Shown piece by piece: positions 3,295 through 4,901 of a DNA stretch of 8,948 bases. The notes under the pieces are model-generated. The model was given only the letters and a program-made list of their open reading frames with translations. It was not told where the DNA came from and made no database searches. Each line of letters begins with the position of its first letter. Position 1 is the first letter of the stretch. The translations under genes and the position numbers were made by a program. The DNA is from a virus (lineage: Duplodnaviria; Heunggongvirae; Uroviricota; Caudoviricetes): the IMG/VR virus record IMGVR_UViG_2660238408_000004. One strand, written 5' to 3'.

Positions 3295-4901
3295 TCATGG
3301 CATGGCCATGAGCATTTTCACGTCCGCATCACCGTCTGCTGACGTCTGTGGCACGCCACCCTGTACCGCTGCCGGTGAATGGTTCGCCATGAAATGTTCA
3401 AACATGGCGGTTGTGGATGCAGAAACCGGTTCTGCCCTGCCTGAGGCTGCCGCCAGTACAGCCCGGGCATTCTCCACNNNNNNNNNNNNNNNNNNNNNNN
3501 NNNNNNNNNNNNNNNNNNNNNNNNNNNNNNNNNNNNNNNNNNNNNNNNNNNNNNNNNNNNNNNNNNNNNNNNNNNNNNNNNNNNNNNNNNNNNNNNNNNN
3601 NNNNNNNNNNNNTGCGCCTCTGCCCCTTTTGCCTCATCCAGGGCCATAATCTGATCACGAAGTGAGGGTCCGGCATTCGCCTGCGGTGAAGCAGCCAGAA
3701 TCGGACGGGCTTTTTCCACCGTCATCTCCGGCATCGCCGCCAGCGTTGCCGCCAGTTGTTCACGTCCTTTCGCCTCTTCACATGCCATAATGCGATCGGC
3801 TTCACTCTGCGCAGATACACCAGATTGTTGCGGTGCCGCCACGGCCAGAATCGCCCGGGCCTGCTCAACGCTCATACCCTGTTGCCCTGCCAGCATCGTG
3901 GCCAGTTGTTCACGTCCTTTCGCTTCCTGACACGTCAGGATCCCCATCACTCGCTGGTTCTCCTGCGCGGCAGCCTCCGTTGCAGTTAATTGCGGCATAG
4001 TGCCTCCTGTATCGTGTGTGTTCAGCGTCGCAGCCATCACGCTGATGGCGTCCGACGCATTGATTAATTCATCCGCCAGTTCGGCCTCAATACCGGACTG
4101 ACCTTCAAAAACGGCGGCCTCTGTTCCCATAACCGCATCCACAGATAAACCGGTATACATCGCCACTTTTTCAGCAAACATCCGGCGCGCCGCATCAATG
4201 CGCTGCTGCATGTCCTGGCGAACCTTTGCTGGCAGGGATTCAAACTGATTGCCATCCACCTTGTGCGATCCGGCGTAAATCAGCGTGATATCCACACCGG
4301 CCTGTGCCAGATGACCGGCATAGCTGACATGGCCCATCATCACCCCAATGGAGCCGATACGGGATGTCTGGGTAACCAGCCGTCGGGAGCAGGCCGATGC
4401 CAGTAACATGGCGGCTGAACAGGCCGTGTCATTGCACAGTGCCCAGACAGGCTTCAGCTGCCGGAGACGGTAAATCATGTCAGCGCAGTCAAACGCGCCG
4501 GTGGCCTGCCCGCCAGAACTGTCAATGTCCAGCAGTACGCCCCGTACCTGAGTGTCCGCCATTGCCTGCTGAAGACAGGCGACAATGCCGTCATAGCCAG
4601 TCATTCCGGAAAATGGCCGCATGCCACCCAGCCGGTGTACCAGCGTGCCGGTCACCGGCAGTACAGCAATACCGTTCACCACCCGGTAAACACGGGCAGG
4701 TCGTTTGCCTCCGGCCATGTACTCGTCCGTTTCAGCCAGCATCCCGGGAGCGTCAAGCTGTACCTGCTGTTGCGGTACCGAAAGGCTTGCTGCGCCCATC
4801 TCACGCCCGAGCGCGCAAAAGAAAACCCGCGCATAGGCGGGCTCCAGAAGCAGCGGCTCATTGAATGCCGCAGCGATAATATGTGAAAGATTACGTCTCA
4901 C
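3295..4901 (-). CDS. C: Head maturation protease / scaffold protein C-like (S49-type prohead protease, Nu3-like scaffold region nested at the 3' end); interrupted by the N gap, so true length is unknown
   Basis: Large ORF 3318..4901 starts with GTG at 4901 (MRRNLSHIIAAAFNEPLLLEPAYARVFFCAL...), matching the lambda gpC N-terminus as recalled. Protease-core motifs are conserved (NGIAVLPV.GTLV, SGMTGY.GI...LQQA, GAFDCAD.I.R.R..KPVWAL.ND..CSA..LLASA.SRRLVTQT.R.GSIGVMM, GV.ITLIY.GSHKVDGN, TEAAV..GQ). After the gap a different frame (3295..3477) carries a further scaffold-like module and the likely true stop TGA at 3297..3295. The part of the 527-aa ORF 3' of the gap (3318..3477) is a frame artefact. 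Confidence 0.8.
3400..3960. repeat. Tandem repeat, period about 150 bp (about 50 aa), encoding repeated scaffold-like modules in the C/Nu3 C-terminal region; copy number unresolved because the assembly gap lies inside it
   Basis: gccagttgttcacgtcctttcgc occurs at 3751-3773 and 3901-3923 (exactly 150 bp apart); related copies abut the gap on both sides (3613-3660 and about 3400-3477). Protein-level repeats on the minus strand: RVMGILTCQEAKGREQLATMLAGQQGMSVEQARAILAVAAPQ / RIMACEEAKGREQLAATLAAMPEMTVEKARPILAASPQ / QIMALDEAKGAEA[gap] / ...ENARAVLAAASG. Confidence 0.65.
3478..3612. other. Assembly gap (135 N)
   Basis: Uninterrupted run of n at 3478..3612, inside the tandem repeat of the C gene; the reading frame differs on the two sides. 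Confidence 0.97.

Follow-up and report, generated by a model that had tools for sequence, protein, structure and literature searches.

A phage-21-type prohead protease/scaffold gene with three tandem scaffold modules, probably intact beneath an assembly gap

Protease/scaffold genes of lambda-like phages

The closest described system is the head operon of phage 21 (M81255.1, which we take to be the record of Smith and Feiss, Gene 1993). In this operon gene 5 encodes the head-tail preconnector gp5, and gene 6 (603 nt), encoding the scaffold gp6, is nested in frame in gene 5. Three repeat regions are annotated in the same record as Tri1 box, Tri box, and Tri3 box, with the note "function unknown; putative". 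In gp5 residues the boxes correspond to 324-358, 371-407, and 418-455, and they are the cores of the modules at 315-360, 365-409, and 412-457 described below; a three-copy repeat in this scaffold region was thus already known. The gene studied here and phage 21 genes 5/6 have the same gene order, the 501-aa length after gap filling, the M302 start of the nested gene, and the three modules, with a sequence divergence of about 6%. The copy studied here differs from phage 21 in that the portal gene of the same prophage is frameshifted and the protease/scaffold gene is interrupted by an assembly gap.

The likeness extends to lambda gpC/gpNu3, which have an S49 domain with conserved Ser/Lys, a nested scaffold gene, and a position between genes B and D. 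Lambda gpC has one homologous module at aa 358-403 (J02459), compared with three in our gene, and a ∼45-aa Thr/Ser/Ala-rich linker before the module, whereas our gene has no long linker. Translation of Nu3 starts at codon 239 in lambda versus 302 in our gene; the two scaffolds are nonetheless 201 and 200 aa long. The Salmonella prophage Gifsy-1 carries a positionally orthologous lambda gpC homologue, STM2605, with three modules in the same register, but it resides in a different host, is 65% identical overall, and has a slightly different tail (…LLMSIPGTSAT).

Two more distant systems deserve mention. Proteins of the P2 gpO type consist of an N-terminal prohead protease and a C-terminal scaffold region. 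We know of no Tri-type module in gpO. The likeness is one of general logic, a protease and a scaffold fused in one frame, and the comparison between lambda-type and P2 gpO protease-scaffold proteins has also been made elsewhere (PMC8508860). With regard to the repeat itself, small tandem three-helix-bundle interaction domains (protein A/affibody, GA module, UBA/CUE) are among the closest known systems. The P22-type scaffolding protein, with its helix-turn-helix coat-binding domain, was also considered, and no sequence or fold similarity to solved scaffolding proteins was found.

The head operon and the gap in the protease/scaffold gene

The window, that is, the whole stretch of 8,948 nt that was analysed (IMG/VR record IMGVR_UViG_2660238408_000004), is a lambda-type head operon resembling that of phage 21 and is encoded on the minus strand. 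Every long ORF of the window with a family match is found on this strand, and the genes are arranged as in the lambda head region: terminase, W, portal, S49 protease, D-like decoration protein, E-like capsid protein, FI, FII, and Z. The terminase large subunit (6685-8652; GpA_ATPase and GpA_nuclease) is followed by gpW (6481-6684; gpW family match), the portal gene (4891-6484; Phage_portal_2, in two ORFs), the prohead protease/scaffold gene, homologue of phage 21 gene 5 and lambda C (3295-4901; Peptidase_S49), the head decoration protein (2911-3258; HDPD), the major capsid protein (1825-2853; Phage_cap_E), FI (1387-1806; Packaging_FI), and FII (998-1375; Phage_attach). A preliminary description of this DNA, made from its letters, had called the gene a homologue of lambda C/Nu3, which the Peptidase_S49 match and the location between the portal and the D/E genes bear out. 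It had also spoken of a scaffold or delta-domain region; an HK97-type delta domain was rejected, as the capsid protein is encoded by a separate gene (342 aa, PF03864 over residues 5-341) and the repeat lies in the protease gene.

The part of the protease/scaffold gene upstream of the gap (3613-4901) shows 92% DNA identity to phage 21 and its relatives. The finished genome of Shigella flexneri SFBU1023 (CP182556.1) is far closer, with 99.96% identity over 3613-8948 and 99.85% over 2830-3477. For the scaffold region, the closest finished E. coli match is found in E. coli O121 (CP119441, 2618262-2625361), in a decayed prophage whose portal gene is truncated and whose head-tail joining gene carries an IS1A insertion. 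Another relative, the IMG/VR locus L009, resembles the window in a mosaic fashion (98.3% identity over 3613-7401, 96.6% over 1647-3477, and 79% over 805-1471, in FII/Z), which points to recombination between related prophages.

Two other genes of the operon carry small length differences. One extra T at 5491-5496 divides the portal gene into two ORFs that overlap (5429-6484 and 4891-5514); the run is T6 in the window versus T5 in L009, and each of the 20-odd relatives that span the site aligns with a single gap. A 60-mer with the extra base is also present in the finished genomes CP182556.1 (S. flexneri) and CP178302.1 (E. coli), and the extra T is therefore probably a real inactivating frameshift in a defective prophage. 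In the terminase large subunit gene, the window has an additional A at 7870 and lacks one T at 7997 relative to CP182556.1. The window copy is in frame and aligns with lambda gpA, whereas the CP182556.1 copy ends after 223 aa, because that genome either has a lesion there or was misread in sequencing.

The protease/scaffold gene begins with GTG at 4901, ends with TGA at 3295-3297, and is interrupted by a run of 135 N (3478-3612). A Peptidase S49 (SppA/ClpP-like) domain occupies aa 147-292 (4026-4463, minus strand; PF01343, E = 3.1e-33, with an SppA_dom match). Residues S162 and K214 are invariant in an alignment of eight sequences; we take them to be the catalytic SppA-type Ser/Lys dyad, with Ser166 as the counterpart in lambda gpC. 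Further downstream, a nested in-frame scaffold gene, homologue of phage 21 gene 6 and lambda Nu3, is predicted on the minus strand at 3295-3998. Its ATG (3998-3996) is preceded at a distance of 4 nt by a Shine-Dalgarno sequence, AGGAGG, that can be read directly at 4003-4008. The ATG is codon M302, the same codon as the gene 6 start annotated in M81255.1, and a ribosome-binding site is annotated at the equivalent place in the phage 21 record. An internal start with a strong ribosome-binding site thus marks a predicted scaffold ORF inside the protease gene, the product of which is 200 aa after a 34-nt gap fill. The S49 domain, the Ser/Lys pair, the portal-to-capsid position, and the nested start together characterise the locus as one of the lambda C/Nu3 type. 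Beyond the gap, alignment reveals the conserved C-terminal tail of the scaffold and the stop codon (…FEHFMANHSP…DADVKMLMAMP; 3295-3429, minus strand), and F165, M169, and the C-terminal LMxxP motif are conserved in the scaffold alignment.

To size the gap, 100 bases on each side of the N run were located in relatives. The two flanks are exactly 34 nt apart in phage 21 M81255.1, CP119441, L009, and CP182556.1 (L001, L002, L009, and L089), and the 34 bases read GGCTGAAAAACTGGCGGCCTGTCCGGGGATGACC on the coding strand. In E. coli O121 CP119441 both flanks are 100% identical to those of the window, and over 3300-3990 the identity to its three-module gene is 100% for the 556 non-N bases. The gene is carried by 1875 finished E. 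coli records, of which we also sampled 60 at even spacing. A span of 590 nt for the 691-nt query, equivalent to 34 nt in the gap, was found in 58 of the 60 rows; the two exceptions were one in-frame 57-nt deletion and one partial row. When the 135 N are replaced by 34 nt, the reading frame is restored and the gene has 1506 nt, 501 aa (the length of phage 21 gp5), and exactly three modules. The gap-filled protein is identical to the CP182556.1 gene product and 94% identical to phage 21 gp5 (471 of 502 aligned positions, stop counted).

The preliminary description had correctly placed the gap inside the repeat and pointed out that the frames do not match across it; the mismatch arises because 135 − 34 = 101, which is not a multiple of three. 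It had left the copy number and the C-terminus undefined. Both can now be deduced, because the 34-nt distance in the 99.9%-identical CP182556.1 and in all checked relatives bar two rows leads to 501 aa and three modules. We concluded that the 135-N run is almost certainly a scaffolding placeholder for about 34 real bases, and, judging from the relatives, that the true gene length would be 1506 nt (501 aa). A 527-aa ORF called at 3318-4901 (minus strand) was rejected as an artefact, since it includes 45 X codons of the N run, after which translation continues in the wrong frame to the tail …ISWRTIHRQRYRVACHRRQQTVMRT. The same wrong-frame tail is also found on several database proteins, e.g. P0020 and P0050.

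If the N run is taken as a one-to-one mask, the window copy would contain a 101-nt frameshifting insertion. This would be in keeping with a gene truly broken in a decaying, defective prophage, through an insertion, deletion, or frameshift under the N run, since 135 N, if the real length, would shift the frame. Copies with wrong-frame tails do occur in finished chromosomes (e.g. P0020, P0044, and P0054), and the portal gene of the same prophage has a +1 frameshift common to two finished genomes, so that further decay is possible. However, CP182556.1, with the same portal frameshift, has an intact 501-aa gene, and in scaffolded drafts it is normal for N runs to have an arbitrary or estimated length. 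We consider a broken gene very unlikely.

It is extremely improbable, in our estimation, that the gap hides an additional repeat unit, which would bring the array to four or more modules and make the scaffold longer than that of phage 21. Relatives with four modules exist: the 538-aa form (L045-L050, H171-H195) is carried by about 95 of 5426 finished E. coli genomes. In addition, array copy number changes by recombination, as seen in L035, and the 135-N estimate exceeds 34. But the genes with four modules form a separate lineage, with about 59% identity to the window gene, and an additional unit would need 175-184 nt, not 135. The 100% identity of the gap flanks to the three-module gene of CP119441 and the 99.85-99.96% identity to that of CP182556.1 also speak against it. 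Very probably, then, the locus is the gene 5/gene 6 pair of a phage-21-type Escherichia/Shigella prophage, with a three-module scaffold, a 34-nt gap, and an intact 501-aa gene.

The scaffold modules and their copy number

In the scaffold region, a ∼45-aa module occurs three times in tandem, in diverged copies with periods of 150 and 141 nt; residue numbers given here refer to the protein with the 34-nt gap fill. On the minus strand, module 1 (Tri1 box equivalent; aa 315-360, NQRVMGILTCQEAKGREQLATMLAGQQGMSVEQARAILAVAAPQQS) lies at 3822-3959 and scores 88 bits with the module HMM, module 2 (Tri box equivalent; aa 365-409) lies at 3675-3809 and scores 87 bits, and module 3 (Tri3 box equivalent; aa 412-457), with the N run inside it, lies at 3430-3668 and scores 82 bits in the gap-filled protein. 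Translation from the GTG at 4901 up to the gap covers two complete units and the beginning of a third (NQRVMGILTCQEAKGREQLATMLAGQQGMSVEQARAILAVAAPQ…, …ADRIMACEEAKGREQLAATLAAMPEMTVEKARPILAASPQ…, and …RDQIMALDEAKGAEA), and 3295-3477, in a different frame, encodes VENARAVLAAASGRAEPVSAS...MLMAMP followed by a stop, i.e., the second half of a unit and the tail. Of the "three to four" copies counted in the preliminary description, three stand; what looks like a fourth copy is the second half of the third, beyond the gap. The statement that the ORF exceeds lambda gpC in length even before the gap was mistaken, as it has 429 codons (4901-3613) compared with 439 aa.

Unit-versus-unit BLASTP gave E values of 2e-12, 5e-10, and 1e-11, far beyond chance in a 501-aa sequence, and with each copy also detected by the HMM (82-88 bits) the tandem repeat of the preliminary description is real. 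At the DNA level, modules 1 and 2 contain a 94-nt repeat pair with a spacing of 150 (73% identity), and module 3 is involved in a 32-nt pair with a spacing of 141. Tandem Repeats Finder, run on the whole window, returned only an unrelated 12-nt repeat and none in the scaffold region, because the copies are too diverged. A 23-nt stretch, GCGAAAGGACGTGAACAACTGGC, which encodes EAKGREQLA, is identical in modules 1 and 2 (3901-3923 and 3751-3773, minus strand) and is a likely substrate for unequal recombination. BLASTP also confirmed the proposed homology of the repeat unit to a single segment of lambda, RIMGILNCEEAHGRE...TVKTARRILAAAPQ, and both BLASTP and the HMM found one module in lambda gpC, as the preliminary description had it; module 1 is 59% identical to it. 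The contig break inside the repeat and the many partial database entries of this gene might suggest an assembly artefact, in which reads of one lambda-like module were collapsed or duplicated, and misassembly had indeed been named at the outset as what could overturn the repeat, but this reading is refuted by finished genomes and its probability is practically nil: copies with 53-61% protein identity over the module core and about 73% DNA identity are no product of misassembly, and the same three copies are present in the 1990s phage 21 record, in Gifsy-1, and in about 1870 finished E. coli genomes.

In the eight-sequence alignment, which includes phages of E. coli, Salmonella, Proteus, and Pseudomonas, invariant columns outside the protease domain are confined to the module. 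In lambda, phi80, and other proteins with one module, a 40-60-aa linker rich in Thr, Ser, Ala, and Gln separates the module from the protease domain; this linker is missing from the three-module proteins (alignment columns ∼330-395). AlphaFold2 modelled each module as three short helices. Module 1 on its own reached a pLDDT of 81 and a pTM of 0.56. With the whole scaffold, the pLDDT was 68 and the pTM 0.28, which leaves the overall fold undefined, with the module blocks at pLDDT 72-82. Each module is thus predicted to be a small three-helix bundle, and in these models the modules look like beads on flexible links. Sequence comparison found no relative with a solved structure, and a Foldseek search gave no match.

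Copy number among related prophages, a comparison proposed in the preliminary description, ranges from 1 to 4. With the module HMM, one copy was found in lambda, phi80, 705R4, Proteus P-07, and Pseudomonas Ppu-503, and three copies in the window, phage 21, and Salmonella Gifsy-1. The best 80 IMG/VR loci comprise 35 with one module, 2 with two, 37 with three, and 5 with four; the remaining one is a 279-aa fragment without a module. The expansion had been presented as new; apart from the Tri1/Tri/Tri3 boxes in M81255.1, the three-module gene is present in 1870 of 5426 finished E. coli genomes (about a third). At equivalent positions, modules of the phage 21 type and of Gifsy-1 are 74, 82, and 66% identical, higher than the 53-61% within one protein, which indicates that the triplication is old. 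Modules 2-4 of the four-module lineage share 87-89% identity, which indicates a recent expansion there.

The two loci with two modules are L051 and L035 (IMGVR_UViG_2531839474_000007). The latter has lost exactly one 50-aa unit, with the junction in EAKGREQLA; this clean deletion and the four-copy relatives agree with the earlier view that the repeat is prone to recombination. Another variant, H169/P0008, has a 57-nt (19-aa) in-frame deletion in module 2.

Most database entries for the scaffold region are "partial" or come from contigs of ∼0.4-3 kb (P0001-P0097). Contig breaks in this gene are thus common in draft assemblies, and their frequency fits the occurrence of several related prophages in one genome (at up to 5 places). 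Short single-module proteins such as P0095 were considered as stand-alone scaffolds, a reading that was rejected: the frame is open to the contig end, and P0095 is probably the C-terminus of a truncated protease gene. A conserved scaffold length, or "ruler", had been suggested by the 201 aa of lambda Nu3 and the 200 aa of gp6. It was ruled out by the whole proteins with two and four modules, at 446-451 and 538 aa, from which scaffolds of about 145-150 and about 237 aa are implied if the nested start codon is equivalent.

Proposed roles of the modules in procapsid assembly

A procapsid pathway based on a protease and its nested scaffold is established for lambda. By homology, a pathway of this type may operate at the window locus. 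The long product would be an S49 serine protease with a C-terminal scaffold region, and the second in-frame start (AGGAGG, ATG 3998) would give rise to the scaffold region alone as an abundant 200-aa protein. With a common C-terminus, both products would be built into the procapsid together with the portal and the major capsid protein, after which the protease would destroy the scaffold and itself.

The module is the sole part of the scaffold conserved from E. coli to Pseudomonas phages, and on this basis we infer that it may serve as a protein-protein contact unit. It would bind the capsid protein and/or other scaffold molecules, and three modules would make the scaffold multivalent; this conjecture draws on sequence conservation. 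The lambda interaction map includes Nu3-Nu3, Nu3-C, Nu3-B, and Nu3-E contacts (PMC3224144).

Copy-number variation itself is observed among close relatives, all of which have an E-type capsid protein. To our knowledge, no study has addressed its meaning beyond the "function unknown" note of the 1990s. One possibility, which we put forward tentatively and regard as rather unlikely, is that the number of modules (1, 2, 3, or 4) could be open to natural tuning. Unequal recombination between short identical cores would alter this number, which would set the number of capsid or scaffold partners per scaffold molecule, and with it the efficiency or fidelity of procapsid assembly.

For annotation, the locus should be described as a single S49 protease/scaffold gene of 501 aa that contains a nested scaffold ORF, and not as a 527-aa ORF or as two fragments, and the N run should not be taken as hidden copy-number variation. 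The repeat has little discovery value in itself, having long been annotated in a classical lambdoid phage and occurring in about one in three finished E. coli genomes. Only the series of one to four copies among lambda-like prophages is mildly new; this natural series may be used to ask what the module binds.
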